From: an uncultured Bacilli bacterium
Lineage (GTDB): Bacteria; Bacillota_I; Bacilli_A; RF39; UBA660
Length of the DNA stretch: 64,000 bases
NCBI GenBank assembly: GCA_934098665.1
Contig: CAKOOO010000002.1
Location: 20,374-84,373 of the forward strand
Direction: 5' to 3'
This document shows, piece after piece, positions 8,882-62,286 of the stretch (position 1 is the first letter of the stretch; every line of letters begins with the position of its first letter). The position numbers and the translations under genes were made by a program. The notes under the pieces were generated by a model, which worked only from the letters and a program-made list of their open reading frames with translations, was not told the DNA's origin and searched no databases.

Positions 8882-8925
8882 TACTATAACAATTATAAAC
8901 TAAAAATAGTCTAATTTCAATAATT
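8882..8925 (-). promoter_or_regulatory. promoter cassette copy a (TTGAAA-17-TATAAT) in front of the pseudopilin operon
   Basis: On the minus strand the -35 TTGAAA lies at 8915-8920 and the -10 TATAAT at 8892-8897, with a 17-nt spacer. The same ~45-nt block recurs at 10597 and 13001. Confidence 0.55.
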
Positions 8926-10583
8926 TAATAAATCATAGGAACTTTACTATTTTCGATGGCTTCCATTTTTTCTTTTTCATATAATAAATCAAGATATACA
9001 CGATAATATTTTTTAAACAAATTTTCTAGATAAGTAGTTATTTCTTTTCCTGATGAAAATATTGAATAATCTATTCCATTAAATGTATAAGATGGATCTA
9101 AAAGAAGTATTTCTTTTTTTATTTTATCTATTTCCTTTAGTAAATTATTTATATATTTAGTATAAATATTTTCTTGAGTTTTATCCATTTGCTCTAAAGT
9201 TTTATTATTTATAGTACTTATCACATCTATTTTTGATACATTACCACTTACTTTTATTAAAATTGGCATTAAATATTTTCTAAAAGTTTTAATAAAACTA
9301 TTTGCATCATTATAATCAAGTGTTTTTTTACCATATAAATAATCAATTACATTTTGCCTTTCACTCATTAAATAAACTATTATTTCTTTTTTAGTATCTT
9401 CATCATTACTATATTTTAAAATGTCAACAAGTTTTTCTAAATCACTAATAATTTCATAATTTGAACTAACCTTTTCACCTCTTAATGTTTTAATCATATT
9501 TTGAATTAAATTCATAATATCATAGTAATTTCCATTTTTTTCATAAATTTGATTTAAACTACTTTTTAAATTTTCTAAACTTATAATTGCATTTGTATAT
9601 AAAGTATTATTTGTATTTAATGAAAGAGTATCATAACTACTAAATAAACCATTATTATACGTGCTAACTATAGCATCAACTTTTTGTTTTACTTCGTTTT
9701 TATTTATTCCTATAAAGTCAATACTTGTTACTTCTTTTGCTAAAGATAATATTTTTTTAGCTTCACTTGTTAATTTATCTGAAAAAAGATTATTATCATT
9801 TACATTAGTATTTTCATAACTTTTTTCTCTAACTACAGTAAACTCTTTTTTAATAGGAAAACTTGGAAACAAACTAGTTATTAATTCATCACTAATTACT
9901 GGACCTTTTAAAGTAAAACTTTTTACATATAAAGTTGAAAGTATTCTTTTGCTATCAAGATATTCCTTTACTGGTTTACAGTTTCTAGCATCATCAAACT
10001 TATATAAATTATGTTTATAGATAAAATCTATTGAACCATATTTATTATAACTTTTTTCATTTTTTTCAAGCTTTGAATATATTAAATTAAAAAATCTATT
10101 TATATCATTAACAAATTTAATTAATTCTTTTTCATTATTATAAGTTAACGTAAAATTAGAGCCCGCAAAAAGGTTCAAACAACGATTATCACCACTTAAA
10201 TAAAGTCTTGAGAAAAGGTCAAAATCACAAGGAATTGTAATATTATTTATTGGTCTTAAACTTCTAAAAGCATATTCATAAACCTTATTTGTTTTATTAT
10301 GAACAGTTAAACTATTAATTTTAACATCATAAAAACAAAATCCATAACTATCTATTTCTAAATTAGTGCCATCTAAATCAATATCTAAATTCATATCCCC
10401 TGTAACACGTTTATCTAATATTATTTCCCCACATGCATAACTGCATACTCTTCTATATCCACTATGAAGAGTAATTTTATAATTCTCATTTTTAAGTAGT
10501 CTTTGCAAGCTATAAGGCACCCTAAAAGATTTAACATCACCATAGTCATTTACAATTTCTAAATTAATAATATTTTCTTCCAT
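8925..10583 (-). CDS. hypothetical cytoplasmic protein, paralog of 10648-12987
   Basis: 552 aa with no signal peptide. The C-terminal ~450 aa are colinear with the neighbouring gene (for example ...ILLLDPSYTFNGIDYS.FSSGKEI..YLENL.KKYYRVYLDLLYEKEKME). Confidence 0.7.
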   Translation of the reverse strand: MEENIINLEIVNDYGDVKSFRVPYSLQRLLKNENYKITLHSGYRRVCSYACGEIILDKRVTGDMNLDIDLDGTNLEIDSYGFCFYDVKINSLTVHNKTNKVYEYAFRSLRPINNITIPCDFDLFSRLYLSGDNRCLNLFAGSNFTLTYNNEKELIKFVNDINRFFNLIYSKLEKNEKSYNKYGSIDFIYKHNLYKFDDARNCKPVKEYLDSKRILSTLYVKSFTLKGPVISDELITSLFPSFPIKKEFTVVREKSYENTNVNDNNLFSDKLTSEAKKILSLAKEVTSIDFIGINKNEVKQKVDAIVSTYNNGLFSSYDTLSLNTNNTLYTNAIISLENLKSSLNQIYEKNGNYYDIMNLIQNMIKTLRGEKVSSNYEIISDLEKLVDILKYSNDEDTKKEIIVYLMSERQNVIDYLYGKKTLDYNDANSFIKTFRKYLMPILIKVSGNVSKIDVISTINNKTLEQMDKTQENIYTKYINNLLKEIDKIKKEILLLDPSYTFNGIDYSIFSSGKEITTYLENLFKKYYRVYLDLLYEKEKMEAIENSKVPMIY

Positions 10584-10647: not shown

Positions 10648-12987
10648 TCATTTAATCAAAGGTACTTTACTATTTTCAAGAGTTTCCATTTTTTCTTTTT
10701 CATATAATAAATCAAGATATACACGATAATATTTTTTATATAAATTTTCTAAATAATCTATTATTTCTTTTCCTGATGAAAATAATGAATAATCTATTCC
10801 ATTAAATGTATAAGATGGATCTAAAAGAAGTATTTCTTTTTTTATTTTATCTATTTCACTTAATAACATTTTAATATAACTATTTGTATTTTCTTTTGTT
10901 TTATTATTCATTTCATTTAAGGCATAATTTTTTATATTATCAAGTACATCTATTTTTGATACATTACCACTTACTTTTGTAAGAATAGGAACTAAATAAA
11001 TCCTAAACTTTCTTATAAAACTATTTATATCATTATAATCTATTTCTTTTTTACCACATAAATAATCTATTATATTTTGTTTTTCACTTTCTAAATAAGA
11101 AATAATTTCATTTTTTGTTGTATCATCTTTACTATATTTTAAAATATTTGCTAAAGTATCTAAATCTTTTAAAATTTCATAGTTGGGTTTTACTTCTTCG
11201 CCATTTAGTTTTTTAATCATATTTTCAATTAAATCTAATATATCATAGTAACCAATTTTTTCTTCAAAATTATGATATAAAGTATCTTTATAGTTTTCTA
11301 ATTTTAAAATAGTATTTGTATAAAGCATATTATTTGAGCTTAATGATAAACCTTCACTCACTTTTAAATTACTATTATACTCTAATATAATCTCATTTAC
11401 ATCTTGTTTAACTTGGTTTTTATCAATACCAATATATTCAATGCTCATTATCTCTCTTACTAAATCAAGTATATGCTGTGCCTCTTTTGTAAGTGTTTGA
11501 TTATCACTAATATTTTCTTTCTTTTCAGTTTTATTTATAAAATTAAATTTAACCCAATTATGCTTTTCAAAAAATGATAAAGCTTTTTTTGTATTTATTT
11601 TAGGACCCTCAAAAGTAATATGTGTTGCCCCAATTTTATTAAATAAACTATCATAATTAGCACCATATGATAAGAAATCACAATATGAAAATTTATATAG
11701 TTCATGTTTATAAATAAAATCGATTTTATTATTTGAATATTTGTAATTAATGGCGTTTTTATAATAATTATCTGAAATTTTTGTAAATAAATCTGTAATT
11801 CTTTGTACGTCTTTCAAAAAAGATATAAGTTCTTTTTCACTTGTATAACTAATAGTTAAATATGCTCTACGAAATAAATTACTAGCCGTTTTATTCCCAC
11901 TTAAATAAAGACTTGTAAATAACTTAAAATCACATGGCATTTTAATACTATAAGCACCCCTATATGAATATTTATCTTTTTTACAAAAAACATTATCCTC
12001 TAAAGAAATGGTTTTGGCATTAATATTTATACTTTCAAATATAACATCCATATCTGAAGAAGAAAAATCAAAAGCATGTGATGAAATAAATACATCATCA
12101 CCCTCTATATTAATATTTACCGTAGCTTTTTCTTTAAAAGAATTTTTAAATAACTCTGAAGATGCATTACTAGAAATTACTTTAGCATTTGAAATATTTA
12201 TATCATATTCTTTTTCATCAAGTGAATATAGCTTTCCGTTACTATCCATTACAATTTCACCTTCATAAGGAAGATAAAAACTATTTATTTCATCATATAA
12301 AGTTTCATTGCAAATTTCAATCTTACCAAATATACTATTAATTTTATCATCTAAAATTTCGTTTAGAAAATATTGATTTAAAAAATTATAGCCTTCATAT
12401 TCAAAATCACTAGCTAAAGTATCTGTATAAAAACCTGCAATAATATCTTTACATATTAAAATATTTTTTTCACTATCTTTTTTCCATATAAGTGGTTTTA
12501 CTTTTACAAAAACCTTTACATCATCGCCATTATTTCTCATCCAAAAATAAGCATATTTTTCCCCATTATAAGTAAAAGTTGGAGCTCTTTTCACTTCATC
12601 ATTTACAGGTATGTGATACTCAAAATCCCAACATTTCGAAGCATCTTTTAGTTTGCTAATAAGATGCTTATCATAAATAATTTTGCTCGGATAAAACCCA
12701 AGAGGATATTCATCATTATCTAAATATTTTATAGAGTTTTCTTTTAAAAAAGATTCAATAAAGCCAGTTGTTCTAATAACAGGTCTTATTCCATAATATT
12801 TTTCATCTTTGCCCTTTTCATAAGAAGTTTTTTCTTTTTTACTTACTAAATTTTCACTTATAAAAAAAGTATTATTTTCGCCATAAATATATTTCGTTAA
12901 ATCATTTTGAGTAGCACCATCTTTAAAAGGCTCATCACTAGTTAAAAATGTTACATAAACTCTTTTTTTAATTGCAAAATCATCCAT
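10648..12987 (-). CDS. hypothetical cytoplasmic protein, longer paralog with an extra N-terminal domain
   Basis: 779 aa. The N-terminal ~230 aa contain YYGIRPVIRT and KPLIWKKD, reminiscent of the GVRPVISL module of the surface family. The rest parallels 8925-10583. Confidence 0.7.
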   Translation of the reverse strand: MDDFAIKKRVYVTFLTSDEPFKDGATQNDLTKYIYGENNTFFISENLVSKKEKTSYEKGKDEKYYGIRPVIRTTGFIESFLKENSIKYLDNDEYPLGFYPSKIIYDKHLISKLKDASKCWDFEYHIPVNDEVKRAPTFTYNGEKYAYFWMRNNGDDVKVFVKVKPLIWKKDSEKNILICKDIIAGFYTDTLASDFEYEGYNFLNQYFLNEILDDKINSIFGKIEICNETLYDEINSFYLPYEGEIVMDSNGKLYSLDEKEYDINISNAKVISSNASSELFKNSFKEKATVNINIEGDDVFISSHAFDFSSSDMDVIFESININAKTISLEDNVFCKKDKYSYRGAYSIKMPCDFKLFTSLYLSGNKTASNLFRRAYLTISYTSEKELISFLKDVQRITDLFTKISDNYYKNAINYKYSNNKIDFIYKHELYKFSYCDFLSYGANYDSLFNKIGATHITFEGPKINTKKALSFFEKHNWVKFNFINKTEKKENISDNQTLTKEAQHILDLVREIMSIEYIGIDKNQVKQDVNEIILEYNSNLKVSEGLSLSSNNMLYTNTILKLENYKDTLYHNFEEKIGYYDILDLIENMIKKLNGEEVKPNYEILKDLDTLANILKYSKDDTTKNEIISYLESEKQNIIDYLCGKKEIDYNDINSFIRKFRIYLVPILTKVSGNVSKIDVLDNIKNYALNEMNNKTKENTNSYIKMLLSEIDKIKKEILLLDPSYTFNGIDYSLFSSGKEIIDYLENLYKKYYRVYLDLLYEKEKMETLENSKVPLIK

Positions 12988-20263: not shown

Positions 20264-20293
20264 ATCATATCATAATTTTTTACCATGTGTCAA
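20264..20293 (-). promoter_or_regulatory. candidate sigma-70-type promoter of the HEPN operon
   Basis: On the minus strand, TTGACA (20288-20293), an 18-nt spacer and TATGAT (20264-20269). Confidence 0.4.
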
Positions 20294-20301
20294 TAGAGCA
20301 T

Positions 20302-20329
20302 AAAAAAATGATGAAATATTTCATCATTT
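20302..20329 (-). terminator. rho-independent terminator of surface protein gene A
   Basis: Perfect palindrome aaatgatgaaa-ta-tttcatcattt followed by a U-run on the minus strand. Confidence 0.65.
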
Positions 20330-22739
20330 ATTCTACCACAAAAGGATTAGTATATGAGCCATCACCTGAAGATATTGTGGTGCCAGGTTTTAAAGATATC
20401 GATGGTCGCACACCCCGCACGTTGACCACGAGGTTGTTGTTCCACCCACCGGAGTCCACCGCCCCGACGGCGGCGTAGCCGTTACCGTTGAGGAAGCTGT
20501 TGGGAGAACCTAACAAAACATATTGTCCACTGTTAAAGTAATGACTACTTCCATAACCAGCTAAACTTAATTCTGGTACTGTTAATAATCCTATTGGATA
20601 TTTTAACCTTGCTTTTGCATTATTTACACTAAATCTATCTGTTTCATTTGCACATAATAAACTTTTATTACTTGTACTATTATTTTTAAAATATAAAACT
20701 TGACTACTTGTACTTCCGTTTGGATTCCAACCAGTTGAAGATAAATTAGTTATGGTTCTATCATTACAGAATACTGTATCTTCTAGTTTATTTGTATAAC
20801 TTGTCATATTGTTTTTATACCAATTATCTATATATGCTTTTATTGTACTATCATCAGTATTTACATCATCTGCATATAACATTTCATTTAAAGCGTCTTC
20901 TACTGATTTTCCTCCAGTTAAGGTTATGTAATATGAAGCACCATTACTAATATAATATACATAATAAATTGATGTACAACTATTACCATTTGTTAAGCAT
21001 GTATAATGATGGGTATTTACATTACTACTATTAGCAATAAATGTATCTGAATTTATTGTTACTGTATCGCTTAATGTATATGTCCCATTTGTATATGTAA
21101 ATGATGAGCCAAATACATAATCTTGATTTGCTAATGTTGTTCCATCTGTTACTCCTCCAGATAGCGAGTAATAATATATTATTGTTCCACTATTTGAAAC
21201 TATATAATAGGGATTAGAACAAGATGTTGATGTGCTATTACATGTATATCTTCCAGATAATGTACTTGATGAAGACACTGTTATATTACTAGGGTTTACT
21301 AAATTGTAAGTACCATTATCATATGTTACACCAGTGCCAATTACTTTTGTACCAACTAAATTTACACGATTAATTATTTTCTTAGATGAATATGCATATA
21401 CTTTATTTTCATTATACATATATCCTACATATGCTGGTGAATTATATTTACTATTAAATGCACTTGTTCCTATTATTGTATCTGTTCCTGTATTATTACA
21501 TGATTTTATTACATCTCCTACTGCTTTGCCAATACTAAATACTACATTATCATTATTTTTTGATACACTACTATCTTTAGAATATTTTACGGTAATAACA
21601 TCTGAAGTTGTAAGACCTTTAAGAGCAATTGTTCCTGAATCTGTAAACTTACCAAGTGATGTGGTACCATTTATAAATTCAGCTTTATCACAGCATGTTT
21701 CTGATGATACAGAGTAATTTAAATAATAATCTCCAGCTTCTTTTACACTAAATGTTATTGTTCCCGTTTTACCATGGTCATGATTTGTACTTGTCCATGT
21801 TTTAATTGTTTCATCAAATGTATATGGATATGTAGCATCATTTGTTACATTTATATATTCATCTTGATTAATAGGTTCTGTATTGACTATATCTTTTACA
21901 GCACCATTATAAACAATTTTTACTCCACCTGTATCTGTGGTTCTTACTATTTTCCAGCATTTATCTGCAAATAGTACATTATTATTTTCTACATTGCCAG
22001 TATAGTAATATACTTTATTTGCATATTTTGTTGTATCTTCATAATCACTTCCATTATATAGTTTTACATACTCATCACCATTTAAATATTTTCTTGCAAT
22101 TATAGAGTATAAATTCTTTGCATATTCCTTAAAATCACAATCTATATTTTCTACTTTAATATTACCACCAAAGGTTTTACCTATTATAGAGTTATCTTGA
22201 GCTATATTTAGATTATAGTATCTTAAATTAAAGTTCCATGTTTCACTTATACTTGTTTGTGATGTTGTTGTTTCTATTGAACCAGAATAAATTTTTATTT
22301 TACTGCTTCCTGCTAAAGAAACATCGTTAAAACTATTACCTTGATTAGAGATTCCTCTTACAGCATATTCTTTTAAAGTGCTTTGTGATGGTGTATAAGA
22401 AGTGCTTGGAACGTATACTATATCATAAGAACAATATACTGGGGCATCACCTTTTGCATCAAGTGTTAAAGTTAAATTTGAATTACTTTCTACATATGAA
22501 GTATAATCATTTGACGCACTCCCCACATCTAAATCACTTTCATTTATTGCTAATGCTACATTTTGATTTCCACTTGTATTAAATGTATAAAACTTTGTAT
22601 CTATCCTTGAGGTTGCATTATTATTTGTATTTATTTTCATGCTACCAAAAAATGCATAAGATGCACTTACTAATATAATAAGAGCTATTACTGATGCTAT
22701 TATAGTTAATATTTTCTTCTTATTATCACTTTTTTCCAT
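20328..22739 (-). CDS. large surface protein A of the lectin-like paralog family (carries GC-rich variable island)
   Basis: N-terminal signal-anchor KKKILTIIASVIALIILVSASYAFFG. Family motifs CWKIVRTTDTGGVKIVYNG, PAYVGYMYNE, IDNWY, FCNDR, YPIGLLTVPE and GVRPSISLKPG...GDGSYTNPFVVE. Start set at the ATG at 22739, after GAAAGG. Confidence 0.8.
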   Translation of the reverse strand: MEKSDNKKKILTIIASVIALIILVSASYAFFGSMKINTNNNATSRIDTKFYTFNTSGNQNVALAINESDLDVGSASNDYTSYVESNSNLTLTLDAKGDAPVYCSYDIVYVPSTSYTPSQSTLKEYAVRGISNQGNSFNDVSLAGSSKIKIYSGSIETTTSQTSISETWNFNLRYYNLNIAQDNSIIGKTFGGNIKVENIDCDFKEYAKNLYSIIARKYLNGDEYVKLYNGSDYEDTTKYANKVYYYTGNVENNNVLFADKCWKIVRTTDTGGVKIVYNGAVKDIVNTEPINQDEYINVTNDATYPYTFDETIKTWTSTNHDHGKTGTITFSVKEAGDYYLNYSVSSETCCDKAEFINGTTSLGKFTDSGTIALKGLTTSDVITVKYSKDSSVSKNNDNVVFSIGKAVGDVIKSCNNTGTDTIIGTSAFNSKYNSPAYVGYMYNENKVYAYSSKKIINRVNLVGTKVIGTGVTYDNGTYNLVNPSNITVSSSSTLSGRYTCNSTSTSCSNPYYIVSNSGTIIYYYSLSGGVTDGTTLANQDYVFGSSFTYTNGTYTLSDTVTINSDTFIANSSNVNTHHYTCLTNGNSCTSIYYVYYISNGASYYITLTGGKSVEDALNEMLYADDVNTDDSTIKAYIDNWYKNNMTSYTNKLEDTVFCNDRTITNLSSTGWNPNGSTSSQVLYFKNNSTSNKSLLCANETDRFSVNNAKARLKYPIGLLTVPELSLAGYGSSHYFNSGQYVLLGSPNSFLNGNGYAAVGAVDSGGWNNNLVVNVRGVRPSISLKPGTTISSGDGSYTNPFVVE
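20404..20510 (-). other. candidate DGR variable region (VR-A)
   Basis: 107 nt at about 65% G+C (hand count) inside a ~25% G+C gene. It encodes GSP-NSFLNGNGYAAVGAVDSGGWNNNLVVNVRG-VRP. Confidence 0.5.
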
Positions 22740-22764
22740 AACAAACCTTTCTATTATCAATTAA

Positions 22765-27695: not shown

Positions 27696-29486
27696 TTAGC
27701 TCTCTACTACATATGGATTATTATAAGTTCCATCACCGGAAAGTTTAACATCTTTTGAAAGTGAAATAACTGGTCTAACACCTAATATCATACTATCCTC
27801 GTTATTTACCGTTTTTTCATAAAAGGAAAAACTTAAGCCAAAAACCATAGCGGCTCCTTCATCGTTAGCAACATCTGGTGATCCAATTAAAATGCCATCT
27901 GTATCTTCAACTGTATAATAAAATAAATAAAATGCTCGATTTTCTTTTCCAGATCCAGATACTGCACCAGCCATTGCTACTTCGTCTGCGGTTATTAAGC
28001 CTACTGGATAAGTTAATGCACCATTTCCACTACTTGAACCTACTGTAAATTTATCACTTGCATTAGGACATGTTAGAACTGGCTTTTTATTTGCGACTAG
28101 TCTTCCATATGCTCCATAATAAATAAACTCATTATTTGATGTAAATGGGTTTATCTCACCATAATCACCATTTTCACTTCGTGAAGCACTTCTATCATAG
28201 CAAAATGGACTATCAGCTATTAATTTTGACGTGCTCTCATCAGTATAAAGCGAAGTTGTTGTATACCAATTATCAATATAAGTTTTTATTGCACTATCAT
28301 TTGTAAGACCATGTTGCTTACCTATTTCATATTTATATCCTACATATTCTGGTTTGTATACATTAGTGTTAAAATCACTTTTTCCAATATATATATTATC
28401 ATTTAGCATTACTACCTTTTGATCTTCGGTTGGAGCTGTTGTACCAGAATAAATCATTCGTACACTGCCATCACCATTTATTCTTATTATTCGCCAGTAT
28501 ATATCGTCACCTATATTCCACAAATATGAACAGTTATAGTTATAGGAACTAGAAGAATTACATTCTTCTAGAGAAGTATATTTTTTATATGATGAAGAAC
28601 TGGCTGAATAATATCCACGTACTGGACCATTAGATGAATATTTTCCAAACTTTATCCAGTTATTATCTACCGCACCTCTAAAATAGTAAGATGTTCCTTG
28701 GTCGTCTTTAGCTGCATACATGCCATCATTTGTTGTTGCCACTGCTGTAAAATCAGGACTTTCTTTTGTTTCAATTGCATTAGCACCACCATTTTTTGCA
28801 AGTATAATATCTTTGGCTTTTGGCACTTCTCCAACATTGCAATTATTATTTTCTACATATATTTTACCTGTAAATGATTTATTACCTAGTTGTGCTTGGT
28901 CTACATTCAAATTATAATATCTACCTGTTATATTTATATTTTGCACTACACTTGTACCTTCACTTGTTATTGTAGCATTTTTTACAAGGGTTTTCTTTGC
29001 TCCAACAGTTGTTGTCTTCGGTGTCCAAGTGCTATCATAAGCAAAATTTGTTTCACTTGCAAAGCTATTTGTTCCACTTGGACTAGAAACCTCTAAAGTA
29101 ATTTCTTTAGTTGCTCCATTTGTTACTGCAACAGTGCTTCCATATATTTCACTAGAAAGATCATATTCATACACTACATCATATGTACATGTTGTTATTA
29201 CATCTGGTACTCCAGTAAGATTTACTGTAAGTGTAGCGGTATTTTCGGCAGCTAGTCCAGTATTACCCTTAAACATTCCACTTGTAGGTACTATTACATT
29301 TAAATTTGCACTTGTTGCTATAAATGAAGTATCTCCTATTGTACTTGCATGAATATTTACTGCTACCTTATTTTCAAGATTTACTGTAAACATACCAAAA
29401 TATGCAAACGATGCACTAATTAAAAGCACTAAAAGAAACATTCCAGATATTATCCAACCTATATTTACTTTCTTTTTATTTTTCAT
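27696..29486 (-). CDS. surface protein D of the lectin-like paralog family
   Basis: N-terminal anchor GWIISGMFLLVLLISASFAYFG. YWRIIRINGDGSVRMIYSG, PEYVGYKYE, IDNWY, FCYDR, YPVGLITADE and GVRPVISLS...GDGTYNNPYVVE. Confidence 0.8.
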   Translation of the reverse strand: MKNKKKVNIGWIISGMFLLVLLISASFAYFGMFTVNLENKVAVNIHASTIGDTSFIATSANLNVIVPTSGMFKGNTGLAAENTATLTVNLTGVPDVITTCTYDVVYEYDLSSEIYGSTVAVTNGATKEITLEVSSPSGTNSFASETNFAYDSTWTPKTTTVGAKKTLVKNATITSEGTSVVQNINITGRYYNLNVDQAQLGNKSFTGKIYVENNNCNVGEVPKAKDIILAKNGGANAIETKESPDFTAVATTNDGMYAAKDDQGTSYYFRGAVDNNWIKFGKYSSNGPVRGYYSASSSSYKKYTSLEECNSSSSYNYNCSYLWNIGDDIYWRIIRINGDGSVRMIYSGTTAPTEDQKVVMLNDNIYIGKSDFNTNVYKPEYVGYKYEIGKQHGLTNDSAIKTYIDNWYTTTSLYTDESTSKLIADSPFCYDRSASRSENGDYGEINPFTSNNEFIYYGAYGRLVANKKPVLTCPNASDKFTVGSSSGNGALTYPVGLITADEVAMAGAVSGSGKENRAFYLFYYTVEDTDGILIGSPDVANDEGAAMVFGLSFSFYEKTVNNEDSMILGVRPVISLSKDVKLSGDGTYNNPYVVES

Positions 29487-34751: not shown

Positions 34752-36317
34752 CTATAAAATACTGTTGTAAACTTGGAACATTGGGATAATTACCGCAAGA
34801 AGTATACCACCAACAATTATAGCCAAGAATACAATCATAATTGGTTCTATTAAACTCTTTAATGAATTAATAATATTTTTATGCATAACTTGATAATAAT
34901 CACTTACTTTTTGCATCATATCTGCAAGTTGCCCGGTTGATTCACCAGTTACTATCATATAATATGCAACATCTGGTACAGCCCAGTGATCTTTAAATGC
35001 ATCTGATATTTTTTCACCTTTAACTATATTATCAATTGTTTTATACATTACTAATCTATATATTTCATTTTTAGTTATTTTACTTAAAATACCCATACTT
35101 TCAGTAATATAAACATTATTTCTTAAAAGTGAGGCAAATGTTTTTGCAAATATAGTAATTTCATTATATATAATAATATTTTTTATAACAGGAATTTTCA
35201 TCGTAACTGTTTGAACAAAAATTCTAAACATTTTAACCTTTTTATACATTACATAATTTGCAAATATTAATAAAGCAAAAACTAATATAACTGTTATAAT
35301 ATTATTTGTTAAAAAATTACTAAAATTAATAAGCCATTTTGTAAGTCCTGTTACCGCAACATCCATTTGGGCATAAATATCATTAAACTGTGGTACAACA
35401 TATAAAACAATAAATGTTATTACCGCAATAGAAAAAATCATTATAATAAGTGGATAAGTAAGAGCACTTTTCATTTCTTTTGTAGTATTATGAACTTCAG
35501 TATAATACTGGGCCATATCCTCAAGGGTCTCTTGAAGTGTTCCCGTAGCTTCAGCGGCTTTAATCATATTTATAAGAAGTGCTGGAAATAAAGTACCTTG
35601 TTTTGCAAGAGCATTTGAAAAAGTTTCTCCAAGAGCAAGTTCATAACATATTGCATCATAAACTCTTTGTCTTGTTTTATTTTTCATTTGTGATGTAAGT
35701 ATTTTCATACCTTCATTTAAGGTAATACCTGCTTTTAAATAAGTAGAAAGCTGAGTTAAAAAGAATATTAAATCTTTTTTAGACATTTCTCTTGAAAAAA
35801 TAGAATTTTCATTATATAAAAAGTTAATCATTTTTGAGGTTTTAATATCATATACTTCATAACCTTTATTAAGTAAAAATGCATTTATATCAAGTTTTGA
35901 AAGGCCAGATATAGTTCCTGAAAATATTTGATTATCACCTTTTGCATTTCTAACTGTAAATCTATATACATTTGGAGTTTTACTTCGAGTTGCTCCACCC
36001 ATTCTTAAATCATTTTCTAAAGCAATTTTCATTTTTTCATATTTTTTTAATGTTGCATTGCTATACTTATATACTTTTTGCCTTTTGATAGTTTTACCTT
36101 TAGTTTTTTCATAAAGGGCCTCTCTTTCATCTGCTGTTTCAATTTTTTCTTTTTTAGATCCTACCGCTTTTTCTAAATTCCATGCAAAAAAGTTAAATAA
36201 AATAACCCACATGTCCCAAAGTAAAAACTTTATTCCCTTTAAGCTATAAAATGGAATGTAAATAAAACTTAATAAAAAGTCAACTAAAATATTACTCTTC
36301 TTTTTTTCTGTATCCAC
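34752..36317 (-). CDS. type II secretion/type IV pilus platform protein (GspF/PilC/ComGB family)
   Basis: Two T2SSF repeats (LTQLSTYLKAGITLNEGM... and FAKTFASLLRNNVYITESM...). GTG start 7 nt after AAGGAG. Confidence 0.85.
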   Translation of the reverse strand: MDTEKKKSNILVDFLLSFIYIPFYSLKGIKFLLWDMWVILFNFFAWNLEKAVGSKKEKIETADEREALYEKTKGKTIKRQKVYKYSNATLKKYEKMKIALENDLRMGGATRSKTPNVYRFTVRNAKGDNQIFSGTISGLSKLDINAFLLNKGYEVYDIKTSKMINFLYNENSIFSREMSKKDLIFFLTQLSTYLKAGITLNEGMKILTSQMKNKTRQRVYDAICYELALGETFSNALAKQGTLFPALLINMIKAAEATGTLQETLEDMAQYYTEVHNTTKEMKSALTYPLIIMIFSIAVITFIVLYVVPQFNDIYAQMDVAVTGLTKWLINFSNFLTNNIITVILVFALLIFANYVMYKKVKMFRIFVQTVTMKIPVIKNIIIYNEITIFAKTFASLLRNNVYITESMGILSKITKNEIYRLVMYKTIDNIVKGEKISDAFKDHWAVPDVAYYMIVTGESTGQLADMMQKVSDYYQVMHKNIINSLKSLIEPIMIVFLAIIVGGILLAVIIPMFQVYNSIL

Positions 36318-42585: not shown

Positions 42586-42612
42586 AAAAAAAATGATAGA
42601 TTACCTATCATT
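42586..42612 (-). terminator. rho-independent terminator of surface protein gene C
   Basis: aaugauag-guaau-cuaucauu hairpin plus a U-run on the minus strand. Confidence 0.6.
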
Positions 42613-44731
42613 AATTAATAATATATGGTTTAGTATACGAGCCATCTCCTGAAAACACTATAGTTTCAGGTTTTAGTGATATGACAGGTTTTACACCAAT
42701 AGATGCCATTGCTGTTCCTCGTGATACAGTATCGTATAACGTTGATTGCATTAAGATTCTTTGATATAATACTGGTGATTGTAGCCATATACCATATCCT
42801 GTATATAAATAATGTTTTTTTGCTTCCACATCTTTAGTTGCCAAATGTGCTTCTGGTGCAGAAAGAAGTCCAACTGGATATGTTAAAGCCCCATTACCAT
42901 TACTAATGTTAACTGTAAATCTATCATTTATATTTTCACAAAAAAGACTATAAGTAACATCGTTATTTTTAAATTTAAATGAATCACCTGTTGTTTGTTT
43001 ACTTAATGACCAACTACCAAGATCAGTATTGCTTCTATCATTACAATATATTGTATCTTCTAATTTATCTGTATAGTTTATCATATTATTTTCATACCAT
43101 GCATCTACTACTTTTTTTATTGCACTGTCCTTTTTATTAACATCATCCGCATATAACATTTCATTTATTGCATTATCTATTGACTTACCATTAGAAATTT
43201 TTATTGCAGAAATATCACTAGTGCCCTTATAATTGATATAATATATAGAACTACAAGTGTTTGATGAATTATAACAAGTAAAATGATAATCATCAATATT
43301 ACTATAATTTGAACGCCAAGTTTTTGCATTAACAGTGATAGTATCCGTTAAAACATATTTACCATTTGTATAAGTAAAAGATTTACCAAAAACATAATCA
43401 ATATCATAATAAGATCCATTTGTTATACCGTCTTTCAAAGTAAAATAATTAAATTGCCTACCGCTTGTTGAAAAAATATATCTTACTTTTTTACAAGAAG
43501 TTGAGGAACCATCACTACAAATATATTTTCCAACAAATGTACTTAAATCACTACTTGTTGTAATATTTACAGAAGTTGGATTTACAAGACTATATAATCC
43601 ATTACTATATGATACTGAGGTTCCAAACATAGTAACATTGCTTGATGTCATATAGTTCATAATTTCATAGTAGTTATCTTCATATGCAATATTATACATA
43701 TACCCAGCATATGCTAAAGAGTTTTGTTCTTCATTATAAGGAGAAAAAGCAATTTGAGCATCATAATATGTATTATTACAAGATTTATATTTATTAATAG
43801 TTTTTCCAAAACTAAATATAACATTATTTCTTGTTCCTGAAGTATAACTTTGATTTCGAGTAAATACTACTTTAATTGTATTTGAGGTAGATAAATTATC
43901 TAAAATAATTTGTCCAGAAATATTACCAACATAGCTACCAAGTAATTCACTATCTTTATAAATATTTATATTCATATCATTTATATTTGCATAAGTTGAA
44001 ACGTCATAATTTAATGCGAAGTCACCATTTTCTGGAACATTAAATGATATTGCTGAACTATTTGTTCCTGTATTTGTACTTGTCCATGTTTTATTTGTTT
44101 CATCAAAAGTATATGGGTATTGTGAATTATTTATTAAATTTTTGTATTGCGATAGTTCAAATAAATTTAAATCGGCAACATTTTTTTGGCTACCATTATA
44201 AATCATTTTAACTCCACCAGTACCTGTAGTTCTTACAATTTTCCAACAATACCCACCAAAAAGAACATTATTATTTTCTACAGCTCCATTAAAGTAATAT
44301 ATATTATTTGCATAATTTGTTGTATCCCCATAATCTGCACCATTATAAATTTTTACAAAATTATCATTGTCTTGATATCTTTTTGCTATTGTATCATATA
44401 GTTTGGCACTATAATCAAAGTATAAATAGCATTTATCACTTCCTATAAAACTAAAACCCACTACCCCGTTTACATTATCATAACTAATTACTTCACCATT
44501 ATTTTCACAATGTGTTTTTTCTTTATTTAATGTATAATTTCCTTTGGGTATATCTTTTGAACTTGATTTTGTATAATCAGTTGCACCATCTTCTTTTATC
44601 ATTATAGATAATTTTTCTTCTTTAATTGGGTTATTTTTACTTAAACTATTTTGCTTAAATTTATAGGTTAAAATTAAACTTAAAATCCCTACTCCCAAAA
44701 ATACGAACAACACTATTTTTTTCTTTTTCAT
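42611..44731 (-). CDS. surface protein C of the lectin-like paralog family
   Basis: MKKKKIVLFVFLGVGILSLILTYKFKQNS anchor, nearly identical to gene B. CWKIVRTTGTGGVKMIYNG, LAYAGYMYN, VDAWY, YCNDR, YPVGLLSAPE and GVKPVISLKP...GDGSYTKPYIIN. ATG at 44731 preferred over the track GTG. Confidence 0.8.
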   Translation of the reverse strand: MKKKKIVLFVFLGVGILSLILTYKFKQNSLSKNNPIKEEKLSIMIKEDGATDYTKSSSKDIPKGNYTLNKEKTHCENNGEVISYDNVNGVVGFSFIGSDKCYLYFDYSAKLYDTIAKRYQDNDNFVKIYNGADYGDTTNYANNIYYFNGAVENNNVLFGGYCWKIVRTTGTGGVKMIYNGSQKNVADLNLFELSQYKNLINNSQYPYTFDETNKTWTSTNTGTNSSAISFNVPENGDFALNYDVSTYANINDMNINIYKDSELLGSYVGNISGQIILDNLSTSNTIKVVFTRNQSYTSGTRNNVIFSFGKTINKYKSCNNTYYDAQIAFSPYNEEQNSLAYAGYMYNIAYEDNYYEIMNYMTSSNVTMFGTSVSYSNGLYSLVNPTSVNITTSSDLSTFVGKYICSDGSSTSCKKVRYIFSTSGRQFNYFTLKDGITNGSYYDIDYVFGKSFTYTNGKYVLTDTITVNAKTWRSNYSNIDDYHFTCYNSSNTCSSIYYINYKGTSDISAIKISNGKSIDNAINEMLYADDVNKKDSAIKKVVDAWYENNMINYTDKLEDTIYCNDRSNTDLGSWSLSKQTTGDSFKFKNNDVTYSLFCENINDRFTVNISNGNGALTYPVGLLSAPEAHLATKDVEAKKHYLYTGYGIWLQSPVLYQRILMQSTLYDTVSRGTAMASIGVKPVISLKPETIVFSGDGSYTKPYIIN

Positions 44732-44778
44732 ATACTCCACTTTTTCTCCGTAAATACGGCATATAATTTTCTTATATT

Positions 44779-50360: not shown

Positions 50361-52487
50361 TTATTCTATTACAAAAGGATTAGTATATGTGCCATCACCT
50401 GAGGATATTTCTGTCCCTTGTTTAAGTGATATTGAAGGTCGCACGCCACTCGCGCTGGCCACGAAGTTGTAGTGCAACCCACTGTAGTGCACCACCCGGA
50501 CGCCTACGTGGTTGCCGTCAAAGTTGTGGGGAGAACCAAGCCAAACTTCTTGTCCACTATAAAAGTAATGACTACTTCCACTTCCATAACCAGACAATCT
50601 TAATTCTGGTGCTGTTAATAATCCTATAGGATATTTTAATTTTGCTTTTGCATTATTTACACTAAATCTATCTGTTTCATTTGCACATACTAAACTCTTA
50701 TTACTTGTACTATAATTTTTAAATTCTAATGGTGTTGTACTTCCGCCGTCTGGGTTCCAACCTTCTAAACTTGATATACTTCTATCATTACAAAATATTG
50801 TATCTTCTAGTTTATCATCATATTTATCTTTTATATTTTCTTCATACCAACTATCTATATATGCTTTTATAGTACTATCTTTTTTATTTACATCATCTGC
50901 ATATAACATCTCATTTAATGCATCACTTACTGACTTTCCCCCCGTTAAGGTTATGTAATATGGAGTACCATTATAAATATAATAAACGTAATAAATTGAT
51001 GTACAGCTATTACCATTTGTTAAACATGTATAATGGTGGGTATTTACTTTACTACTATTATTAATAAATGTATCGGAATTTATTGTTACTGTATCAGTTA
51101 ATGTATATGTTCCATTATATGTAAAGGATTTGCCAAATACATAATCTTGATTTGCTAGTGTTGTTACATCTGTTGTTCCTCCAGAAAGTGAGTAATAATA
51201 TATTGTTGTTCCACTATATCCCGCTATATACCATAAACTATAACATGTTCCTGTTGTATTTGAACTATTACATGTATATTTACCTACTAAAGTACTAATA
51301 TTAGAACTTGACACAGTTATTGTTGCTGCATTAGTAAGTGTATATTTATTACTTGCATAGGTTGCTCCATCTCCATATGCTTTTTGTCCACTAAAATATG
51401 TATTATTAATTATTGTCTTAGATGAAGATGGATATACTTTGCTTTCATTATACATATATCCTACATATGCTGGTGAGTTAGAATAATTATTAAATGTACT
51501 TGTTCCTATTTGTGAATTCTGTCCTGTATTATTACATGTTTTTATTATACTATTTGCTTTTCCGAAACTAAATATTACATTATTTCTGTTTCCATCTAAA
51601 GGCGGCATTTGTCTAGTATAAACTAATTTTACTACATTTGATGTAGCAAGGTCTTTAAAAACAATTTGTCCAGTTGCTACTCCAGTATATTTTCCTTGAC
51701 TTACATCATCTTTAAATATTTCTACATTTATATAATCAATATAGTCATCCATTGATAAATCATAATTTATTACATAATCTCCGCTTGTTGGTGCCGTAAA
51801 TGATATTGTTGAACTATTTGCTCCTGTATTTGTACTTGTCCATGTTTTATTTGTTTCATCATATGTATAGGGATATGATATATCATTAGTTAAGTTTGTA
51901 TATTCTGACTGATTTAATAAAGTGTAGTCATCTATAGTTGGTCTTCCACTATATACTATCTTAACTCCACCTGTATCTGTAGTTCTTACTATCTTCCAGC
52001 ATTTATCAGCAAATAAAACATTGTTATTTTCTACAGCTCCGTTAAAGTAATATATATTGTTTTCATATGACGTTGTATCTCCATAATCTGCTCCATTATA
52101 TAGTTTTACAAATACATCATCTCTATTATATCTATTTTCAATTATATTGTATAAAGGTGGTACTATTTCATCAAAATATAAGAAACATTTATCTGTACCT
52201 ATAAAAGCAAAAGACACAGTACCTGTAGCATTATCATAACCTTCTATTTTACCATTATTTTTGCAATAACTTTTTTCTGTGTTCAATGTATAATCACCTT
52301 TAGGAATATCCTTTGAGCTTGATTTTGTATATTCTGTAGCACCAGATTCTTTTATCATTATAGATAATTTTTCTTCTTTAACAATTTTATTTTTACTTAA
52401 ACTATTTTGCTTAAATTTATAGGTTAAAATTAAACTTAAAACACCTACAAATAAAAATACGAACAACACTATTTTTTTCTTCTTCAT
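50361..52487 (-). CDS. surface protein B of the lectin-like paralog family (mosaic, carries GC-rich variable island)
   Basis: The N-terminal ~130 aa are nearly identical to gene C. The C-terminal ~250 aa are nearly identical to gene A, apart from the GC-rich island. Confidence 0.85.
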   Translation of the reverse strand: MKKKKIVLFVFLFVGVLSLILTYKFKQNSLSKNKIVKEEKLSIMIKESGATEYTKSSSKDIPKGDYTLNTEKSYCKNNGKIEGYDNATGTVSFAFIGTDKCFLYFDEIVPPLYNIIENRYNRDDVFVKLYNGADYGDTTSYENNIYYFNGAVENNNVLFADKCWKIVRTTDTGGVKIVYSGRPTIDDYTLLNQSEYTNLTNDISYPYTYDETNKTWTSTNTGANSSTISFTAPTSGDYVINYDLSMDDYIDYINVEIFKDDVSQGKYTGVATGQIVFKDLATSNVVKLVYTRQMPPLDGNRNNVIFSFGKANSIIKTCNNTGQNSQIGTSTFNNYSNSPAYVGYMYNESKVYPSSSKTIINNTYFSGQKAYGDGATYASNKYTLTNAATITVSSSNISTLVGKYTCNSSNTTGTCYSLWYIAGYSGTTIYYYSLSGGTTDVTTLANQDYVFGKSFTYNGTYTLTDTVTINSDTFINNSSKVNTHHYTCLTNGNSCTSIYYVYYIYNGTPYYITLTGGKSVSDALNEMLYADDVNKKDSTIKAYIDSWYEENIKDKYDDKLEDTIFCNDRSISSLEGWNPDGGSTTPLEFKNYSTSNKSLVCANETDRFSVNNAKAKLKYPIGLLTAPELRLSGYGSGSSHYFYSGQEVWLGSPHNFDGNHVGVRVVHYSGLHYNFVASASGVRPSISLKQGTEISSGDGTYTNPFVIE
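50437..50537 (-). other. candidate DGR variable region (VR-B)
   Basis: 101 nt at about 62% G+C (hand count). It encodes GSP-HNFDGNHVGVRVVHYSGLHYNFVASASG-VRP, at the same position as VR-A. Confidence 0.5.
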
Positions 52488-62028: not shown

Positions 62029-62104
62029 TGGTGTCCTGTTGGAGATTCGAACTCCAGACCCTTTGATTAAAAGTCAAATGCTCTACCGACTGAGCTAACA
62101 GGAC
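62029..62104 (-). tRNA. tRNA-Lys (anticodon UUU)
   Basis: A 76-nt cloverleaf was folded by hand. Acceptor gtcctgt/acaggac, anticodon loop cuUUUaa, TPsiC ggagttcgaatctcc, and an encoded CCA. Confidence 0.85.
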
Positions 62105-62116
62105 AAAATATTGAAA

Positions 62117-62192
62117 TGGCTGCCTCGGATGGATTCGAACCATCGGAATGTCAGAGTCAAAGTCTGATGCCTTGCCACTTGGCTACGAGGCA
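62117..62192 (-). tRNA. tRNA-Gln (anticodon UUG)
   Basis: Acceptor tgcctcg/cgaggca (U1-A72, as in bacterial tRNA-Gln), anticodon stem tcaga/tctga with loop cuUUGac, and an encoded CCA. Ends are accurate to within 1 nt. Confidence 0.8.
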
Positions 62193-62202
62193 ATATTTGA
62201 AA

Positions 62203-62286
62203 TGGTGGAAGGAGATGGATTTGAACCATCGAACCCGAAGGAACAGATTTACAGTCTGCCGCGTTTGGCCACTTCGCTATCCTTCC
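62203..62286 (-). tRNA. tRNA-Tyr (anticodon GUA), class II with a long variable arm
   Basis: 84 nt. Acceptor ggaagga/tccttcc, anticodon loop cuGUAaa, a long variable arm, and an encoded CCA. Confidence 0.85.

Follow-up and report, generated by a model that had tools for sequence, protein, structure and literature searches.

Most reports on diversity-generating retroelements (DGRs) present them as devices of active hypermutation. Here we describe two islands of high G+C content in a 64-kb stretch of DNA from an uncultured RF39-type Bacilli bacterium (the window: the whole stretch that was analysed), each of which lies in one of two paralogous surface-protein genes, A and B, and each of which very probably originated as the variable region of a DGR and now appears to be frozen, or rewritten only rarely. 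The closest known system is formed by the DUF6273/C-type-lectin-like DGR targets of gut Firmicutes phages (the tentaclins, and the Faecalibacterium prophages Lelie, CP11, Roos and Pioen); DUF6273 has been reported as a DGR target with a C-type-lectin-like fold and with the variable region at its C-terminus (PMC10743442, PMC11792537). As in these phage targets, the variable region described here lies at the C-terminal end of the domain, before a G/A-V-R-P-like motif and on a predicted surface β-hairpin, and related cassettes combine an AAC-rich template with Avd and a reverse transcriptase (RT). In contrast to the phage targets, the proteins concerned are chromosomally encoded cell-surface proteins of 700–820 aa, present as many paralogs in a reduced genome, and not tail or receptor-binding proteins; in addition, the window sequence falls below any Pfam threshold (half of its relatives reach DUF6273) and no DGR core lies beside the window genes.

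Two further systems bear comparison. Cellular DGRs of the Treponema denticola TvpA and Legionella LdtA type (Lineage 4, architecture D 'MSL'; Wu et al. 2018, PMC5758913) are likewise non-phage elements, in which one template serves several distant paralogous surface proteins and which include a MutS-like module and Avd. The cassettes found in relatives of the window differ from the 'MSL' architecture in that MutS_I forms a C-terminal fusion with the RT instead of having a small MSL gene of its own, and from TvpA/LdtA-type systems in that the target domain is DUF6273 rather than a domain of the FGE-sulfatase type. With Bordetella phage BPP-1 (Mtd/bRT/Avd) they share adenine-specific substitution, a variable region at the 3′ end of the target, and identity between template and variable region that runs through a G+C-rich 3′ segment and then gives way to divergence, in the manner of an initiation of mutagenic homing (IMH) site. 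Unlike BPP-1, the order is target–leader–template repeat (TR)–avd–RT, with a conserved leader hairpin and in-frame length differences between template and variable region; no G+C-rich hairpin or cruciform is detectable downstream, even in targets that obey the adenine rule; and the variable region in the window shows no variation among strains. DUF6273 targets, remote targets and MutS-like modules have already been described (PMC5758913, PMC10743442, PMC11792537); what is new is the lineage and the protein family, for which a literature search found no DGR report.

G+C content was scanned over all 107-nt windows of the 64-kb stretch (mean 24.9%, sd 6.5%). The maximum is island 1 (20404–20510), with 65.4% G+C against 24.9% for the whole window (z about 6); the paralogous island 2 (50437–50537) has 62.4%, and 107-nt windows of at least 50% G+C occur at these two islands only. 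Both islands are on the minus strand, close to the 3′ ends of paralogous open reading frames (ORFs), and each is bounded by (L/W)LGSP codons on one side and GVRP codons on the other, with 28 conserved codons between the end of the island and the stop in both genes. A first-pass annotation, made from the letters of the sequence alone, had claimed just such an island, of about 65% G+C in a setting of about 25%, lying between LGSP and GVRP and with the same borders in its paralogous copy; composition and borders are both as it described. Amino-acid composition cannot explain the islands, because third-position G+C is far higher in islands 1 and 2 (93% and 85%, respectively) than in the whole genes (13–15%). 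Nor is an island a property of the domain as such, because two other paralogs in the window (C and D) share the C-terminal motifs at ordinary composition. Island 1 displays traits of a DGR target: position at the 3′ end of an ORF, codons of the NNC/AAC type, and a concentration of substitutions in the first two codon positions. By analogy with relatives, its GVRP codons may act as an IMH-like homing boundary, the point at which identity between variable region and template would end. Elsewhere in the window the only other notable rise in G+C is a cluster of tRNA-Lys(ttt), tRNA-Gln(ttg) and tRNA-Tyr(gta) genes (62029–62286, minus strand); a short stretch of 50% G+C lies at 35506–35565, inside the ORF at 34752–36317.

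The substitutions that separate the two islands are unevenly spread over the codon. Within the last 17 codons before GVRP, 13 codons differ by 14 substitutions, exactly as first counted, although by our recount 13 of these, rather than 12, affect the first or second codon position. When the 27 aligned variable codons are taken together, these two positions account for 19 of 23 differences; the corresponding figures are 249 of 414 for the remainder of the gene pair (Fisher p = 0.045) and 15 of 33 for the 88 flanking codons. The bias is real, yet modestly significant on the island pair alone. Comparison can be widened to a group of five variable regions from three genomes that share an 'SGGW' scaffold (window A, window B, L082, L099 and L100), in which invariant GTC/GTG/TGG (V/G/W) codons stand between variable NNC codons. 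Because invariant codons alternate with variable NNC codons, the group points to a common template, roughly NNFNNNNANVR.VNSGGWNNNNVNN.R-GVRP; no template of this form was found in our searches.

The family to which the host proteins belong is large. Protein A matches P0001 and has 1567 database relatives at E ≤ 0.001, all of them without a name or a Pfam domain. Among public records, those nearest to the window are metagenome-assembled genomes (MAGs) of uncultured gut Bacilli of the 'Mycoplasma sp. CAG:472/877' kind, which we refer to as RF39-type. In an alignment of 120 homologs the ~30 residues from WLGSP to GVRP are hypervariable between lineages and rich in N, S, G, Y, D and F, whereas the flanks, YPIGLL..PE...WLGSP on one side and GVRPSVSLKPGT..SGDGSYT.PFVIE on the other, are nearly invariant across the family. 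The full window proteins gave no family match in Pfam at E values up to 5, and a family profile matched no PDB sequence. Of 39 aligned family C-termini, however, 19 matched DUF6273 (PF19789; best E = 1.1e-5); P0041 matched it at 2.4e-4, below the gathering score, with profile positions 128–171 corresponding to the end of the variable region. On the strength of these profile matches we regard the C-terminal domain of the host genes as a divergent DUF6273. In an AlphaFold2 (AF2) model (pLDDT 81) the variable region lies on a β-hairpin.

Some relatives carry templates as well as variable regions. A scan of species-representative genomes returned 78 loci, many of which have a G+C island at the same place while others have none; at two loci an extra AAC-rich copy was found directly downstream of the gene. 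At one of these related loci, L047 (a rabbit-gut MAG), the target is followed by a leader of ~200 nt, a TR, an Avd-like ORF of 122 aa and an RT of 498 aa. Between its cis variable region and the TR, 17 of 37 adenines are changed and none of 75 non-adenine positions; the two repeats are identical through GGCGTGCGTCCCGCA and divergent beyond it. Complete cassettes (target–leader–TR–Avd–RT) are present at L047, L081, L083–86, L087/88 and L098, with more of the same build recovered by way of the RT (L104–109), and those with readable flanks lie among housekeeping genes. The RT matches RVT_1 (E = 2e-16), a C-terminal MutS_I (1.6e-5) and phrog_1423 (PHROG 1423; 2e-79), while the small Avd-like ORFs match 'Avd protein of DGR' weakly (phrog_3206, 6e-4 and 2.5e-3; NF033474, 5e-3). 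RTs of this clade are ~490–505 aa long, with MutS domain I (PF01624) fused at the C-terminus (L047:3175–4671, L081:10001–11467, L088:2698–4215). Template cores have 42–48% G+C, with 33–36 A in 84 nt (~40% A), and are poor in T; their variable regions have 53–64% G+C.

At locus L013 a TR (12353–12471) stands directly after the target, is followed by RimP, NusA and IF2, and has no RT or Avd within 10 kb. Between this template and a remote paralog of the same MAG (L026, 921–1010), 20 of 38 adenines are changed and 0 of 76 non-adenine positions; two further remote targets, L012 (11912–11995) and L016 (11444–11527), show 4/76 non-adenine mismatches each. The L013 template fits its own adjacent target less well (5/76 mismatches and a 6-nt gap). 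Homology between variable region and template starts in the W-L-x-S-P codons (L047, L013, L026) and ends in the G-V-R-P codons, and these borders coincide with those of the window islands. Judged from these alignments, the family is a genuine multi-target, trans-capable DGR target family. The classification of island 1 as a DGR-type variable region, made in the first-pass annotation, gains support from the same source, namely homologous islands in relatives that differ from AAC-rich templates only at adenines.

Two features of the related cassettes merit separate mention. Firstly, in-frame indels occur inside AAC runs despite a perfect adenine rule (L026 relative to the L013 template, +6 nt; L047:2140–2220 relative to its own template, −3 nt). 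These suggest slippage of the RT, which could account for the difference of two codons between the window islands. Secondly, the leader between the target stop and the TR contains a hairpin with the invariant loop GAAAACCCTTTC, the stem of which varies by compensatory substitutions: both partners are altered in 5 of 8 pairs, with 98% of cells paired. Beyond it come a second hairpin, TTAAAC..GTTTAA, and the motif TAGGATTATGTC. The leader has no match in Rfam. In BPP-1 the rule is a G+C-rich hairpin or cruciform with a GRNA loop, 4–34 bp downstream of the variable region (PMC3240598). No hairpin of this type was detected when the 84 nt of DNA after the variable codons of the window genes were folded (z = +0.5 and +1.3), and confirmed targets in relatives likewise lack one (z = −1.2 to +0.1); because the feature is absent from this DGR lineage generally, its absence from the window is uninformative. 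A conserved G+C-rich hairpin that follows some targets was considered as a recognition cruciform of the BPP-1 type and rejected: L026, L012 and L016 obey the adenine rule without it, and in complete cassettes it sits upstream of the TR, which argues against such a role.

Together these data suggest how the islands would have been made, by the mechanism seen in relatives. An RNA with an adenine-rich TR would encode roughly NNFNNNNANxRNVN..G..NNNNVNN..GVRP; a DGR RT (RVT_1 with C-terminal MutS_I), aided by an Avd-like protein, would copy this RNA and misincorporate opposite adenines, and the resulting cDNA would replace the part of the gene that lies between the WLxSP and GVRP codons. Roughly one adenine in two would become another base, mostly G or C, and the product would be a patch of 59–67% G+C with NNC codons. 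Simple arithmetic gives a predicted gain of ~15 points of G+C, because about half of ~36 adenines would be converted, two thirds of them to G or C, and this equals the observed gap. Each rewriting may change a binding surface, the predicted β-hairpin of a divergent DUF6273 domain that the literature describes as C-type-lectin-like. At present, the DGR may have been lost from the lineage or have diverged, or it may act so rarely that no event has occurred since the strains split.

An origin unrelated to DGRs, by horizontal transfer, by gene conversion between paralogs or by selection on protein or mRNA, seems to us very improbable. Recombination between paralogs does occur in the family: P0133 is a recombinant in which protein A carries the C-terminal ~150 residues of another paralog (P0060-type). 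Such an origin would also sit easily with the marginal codon-position bias between the islands relative to the rest of the gene pair, and with the fact that neither a template nor an RT was found for the genome of the window (searched: the 64-kb window). Selection on amino acids, however, cannot produce 93% third-position G+C with NNC codons, and in homologs the same position is templated by adenine-rich repeats that have an RT and Avd beside them, and none but adenines are substituted. The match between the borders of the islands and the template-homology borders of relatives, together with the interleaving of invariant V/G/W codons and variable NNC codons in the five 'SGGW' regions, counts against it too.

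If the islands were operating targets of a DGR that acts from elsewhere in the genome, as the first-pass annotation proposed, they should differ between strains, and comparison of strains (consensus sequences of assemblies) gave this part of the proposal no support. Island 1 shows 0 differences in 107 nt across six strains (the window and five others, from Hadza and other cohorts), while the five others differ from the window at 7–39 positions per 4.4 kb around gene A. Among 11 distinct variants of protein A, variable region 1 is identical in 10. Two other assemblies (L102 and L103) have a gene B, island 2 included, that matches the window copy at every nucleotide, which makes three in all; a variant protein has two residue differences, both of them outside island 2. 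The same holds more widely: in ten other family clusters (at least 90% identity), some of them represented on 35–69 contigs, the variable region is constant within clusters and unrelated between them. Amino-acid polymorphism between strains in protein A falls almost entirely at residues 62–150 (window 22290–22560), not in the DGR-type region, and five nucleotide comparisons agree on this. Only one strain, P0127, has changes in the variable region; both codons are predicted to derive from template adenines. P0064 was considered as a recent rewriting of island 2 and rejected: the whole protein is only 86% identical, and residues that no template would supply (H-Y, F) are common to both variable regions, which points to divergence by descent.

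No RT, Avd or TR is present in the 64-kb window by blastn, degenerate-pattern scan or tblastn, as had been noted at the outset, and neither sensitive blastn nor a degenerate scan that allowed adenine at every position found a third copy of the island there. As a control, the A/R/M/W degenerate scan recovered the L047 template from the variable region of L047 itself. Ten templates of relatives were compared with the islands (L013, L047, L081, L083/84, L088, L098/94/95, L106 and L107), and none fits island 1 or island 2: non-adenine mismatch is 24–34% for the fully scored templates of L013, L047, L088 and L098, and up to 39% for L106/L107. Nor was a cognate template found among ~100 related loci or in pattern scans of viral (IMG/VR) and JGI metagenome sequences, although the JGI result says little because the island itself is absent from JGI contigs. 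Several candidates were pursued and set aside. The generic 5′ motif of the templates had a single match in viral contigs, an unrelated Thr/Ser-rich phage ORF; the motif TCTCCCAACAACTTYAACAAC in metagenome contigs identified a real human-gut DGR (L094, L095, L098), the template of which is not cognate (22/84 non-adenine mismatches); RT-guided look-ups (P0335, P0263, P0257, P0241 and P0238) yielded five more cassettes, none cognate; and three ORFs that follow gene A, of 190, 141 and 556 aa, show no similarity to Avd or RT, of which they might have been decayed copies. The nearest targets with an 'SGGW' scaffold (P0117, P0011 and P0048) have neither template nor RT adjoining.

The DGR at L088 (RF39-type) comes from the same ENA metagenome sample (ERZ27287180) as L001, a near-identical copy of the window region. 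Its template shows 26/76 and 22/76 non-adenine mismatches to the two islands, and the locus, which has no genes in common with the window, could not be linked to the genome of the window. The templates at L088:2059–2175 and L087:5356–5480, from two independent assemblies, are 1 nt short relative to their own cis variable region (AAC GTT → AA- GTT), and homing from such a template would be predicted to shift the frame of the target.

These observations bear directly on the possibility that the islands are active remote targets of an intact DGR, located elsewhere in the chromosome or on a resident mobile element and acting rarely or conditionally. Several observations speak for it. Trans-templated remote targets exist (L026, L012 and L016, from the L013 template), and a template can lie far from any RT, as at L013; the islands are still very rich in G+C and NNC codons, with 7 AAC codons kept in island 1; an RF39-type DGR occurs in the very sample that contains L001; and both changes in P0127 are at codons predicted to be adenine-derived. 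We nonetheless consider it unlikely, given the nucleotide identity of island 1 in six strains of several cohorts and of gene B in three assemblies, the poor fit and the frameshift of the L088 template, and the lack of a cognate template in the window, in ~100 related loci and in the viral and JGI pattern scans.

A variant of this idea has the RT supplied in trans by a phage or other transient element, with the chromosome holding the targets (and sometimes a template) and with rewriting in bursts upon infection. It would explain both orphan templates and long stasis: the L013 template has clearly been used, yet the surrounding 10 kb contain no RT. Most contigs with an RT are short, and DUF6273 targets and DGRs are common in gut Firmicutes phages (PMC11792537). 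Against it, every RT of the clade that was recovered with flanks sits among housekeeping rather than phage genes; a scan of IMG/VR with the RT profile returned a single distant relative (26% identity), and the template-pattern scans of viral contigs returned nothing relevant. We regard this variant as highly unlikely.

A further line of evidence concerns what becomes of variable regions in this family. Across 41 family members the G+C content of the variable region ranges from 67% down to 26%, and the fraction of NNC codons from 0.73 to 0.04; such a graded series is the pattern expected from a slow return to genomic composition. Parts of cassettes are also found alone. The first leader part, or its hairpin, is kept without a TR at L014:10240–10330, L017:4190–4330 and L043:11825–11900. 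At L099 (1792–5099), which belongs to the 'SGGW' group closest to the window islands, an integrase starts 3 nt after the target and is 73% identical to the tyrosine recombinase of L081, the gene of which overlaps the end of the RT gene (L081:7037–12327); from this arrangement L099 looks as if the TR–avd–RT module were missing. The L081 cassette lies a few genes upstream of a Post_transc_reg–RelA–Dtd–LysM block, and the same block follows gene A, a partial synteny that is suggestive. The leaders at L014, L017 and L043, the arrangement at L099, the deletion in the L087/L088 templates and the lack of an RT at L013 may all be signs of stages of cassette loss in related genomes.

Composition, hypervariability across the family, the adenine rule in relatives and stasis among strains are matters of direct observation; that these two islands were themselves written by such an element, and that the element no longer acts, we infer from them. 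The islands are very probably DGR variable regions by origin. To the fuller account, in which they are DGR variable regions that were written by mutagenic retrohoming and are now frozen or rarely rewritten, we assign a probability of roughly 0.68.

Several points weigh against this account. No cognate template was found for either island, and the support from the adenine rule, which is the defining test, comes from relatives and not from the window itself. The islands differ by two codons in length and at a few third codon positions, and a single template with pure adenine mutagenesis needs extra assumptions (RT slippage, later drift) to produce these differences. The evidence of stasis comes from strains that are very close, with at most 7 amino-acid differences in 803, such that 'frozen' covers a short evolutionary time only; at the background rate ~2.3 differences would be expected in 107 nt, and zero is not significantly low. 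P0127, known from a 2.7-kb contig, has two of its three amino-acid differences in the variable region (N753S and A757D). In the graded series of the family the window islands are at the G+C-rich, 'fresh' end. Finally, the C-type-lectin-like fold, which the first-pass annotation proposed and the literature describes for DUF6273, gained no support from Foldseek searches with two AF2 models, which gave no significant match and no C-type-lectin match.

The features of the window and of the related cassettes are collected in Table 1. The setting of gene A is chromosomal, with FtsW, RelA/SpoT, peptide deformylase and others around it. Its ORF spans 20328–22760, with the start probably at the ATG at 22739 (803 aa). 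The conserved leader hairpin that follows the cis targets of relatives is not present after the genes of the window, and no TR is present after gene A. Elsewhere in the window, two tandem genes (8925–10583 and 10648–12987, minus strand; 552 and 779 aa) have a very low G+C content (22%) and encode proteins whose last 150 residues are almost the same.

Table 1. Coordinates of the islands, their host genes and paralogs in the window, and of the leader in related cassettes
Feature	Position	Strand	Description
Gene A	20328..22739	-	803-aa surface-protein paralog with N-terminal hydrophobic segment and probable divergent DUF6273-type C-terminal domain; hosts variable region 1
Island 1, 5′ edge	20502..20510	-	GGT TCT CCC (G-S-P); border common to island 2
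Variable region 1, core	20415..20501	-	29 codons, NSFLNGNGYAAVGAVDSGGWNNNLVVNVR; 64% G+C, 93% at third positions, 7 AAC codons
Island 1, conserved G+C-rich 3′ end	20403..20414	-	GGT GTG CGA CCA (G-V-R-P)
A+T-rich hairpin and T run	20290..20327	-	Directly 3′ of the gene A stop; resembles an ordinary terminator
Gene B	50361..52487	-	708-aa paralog, 58% identical to A; hosts variable region 2
Variable region 2, core	50448..50528	-	27 codons, HNFDGNHVGVRVVHYSGLHYNFVASAS; 59% G+C, 85% at third positions
Paralog C	42611..44740	-	Found by tblastn; same family, equivalent stretch 31–42% G+C without island; internal control
Paralog D	27696..29486	-	More distant; C-terminal motifs YPVGL...GSP...GVRPVISL kept, without G+C island
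Leader in cassettes	L081:9200-9340; L047:2320-2520; L013:12195-12345; L088:1890-2050; L083:5190-5330		Between target and template repeat in related loci

The account of DGR variable regions that are now frozen or rarely rewritten can be extended to the family as a whole. In such an extension, which might be called 'burst and freeze', a chromosomal template, sometimes without an adjacent RT, would rewrite a set of paralogs in rare episodes, after which the core would be lost or disabled and the islands would stay fixed across human populations and slowly decay towards the A+T content of the genome. We offer this tentatively, as something possible but rather less probable than not. Were it true, the G+C content and NNC fraction of an island would provide a clock of its last rewriting, and assemblies alone would suffice to date DGR activity and loss across a bacterial order.

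The target family, which is large and lacks annotation, has over 1,500 relatives in the databases and several paralogs in each genome of ~1 Mb, and it occurs in a very common uncultured gut lineage. Its variable regions are easily spotted as G+C islands, and they appear fixed within lineages and are completely different between them. The family is thus a natural series for the study of the firing frequency of cellular DGRs, of their loss, and of the later fate of a 'chosen' variable sequence. It further points to the C-terminal tip as the surface through which the main surface-protein family of these bacteria probably binds its ligands.

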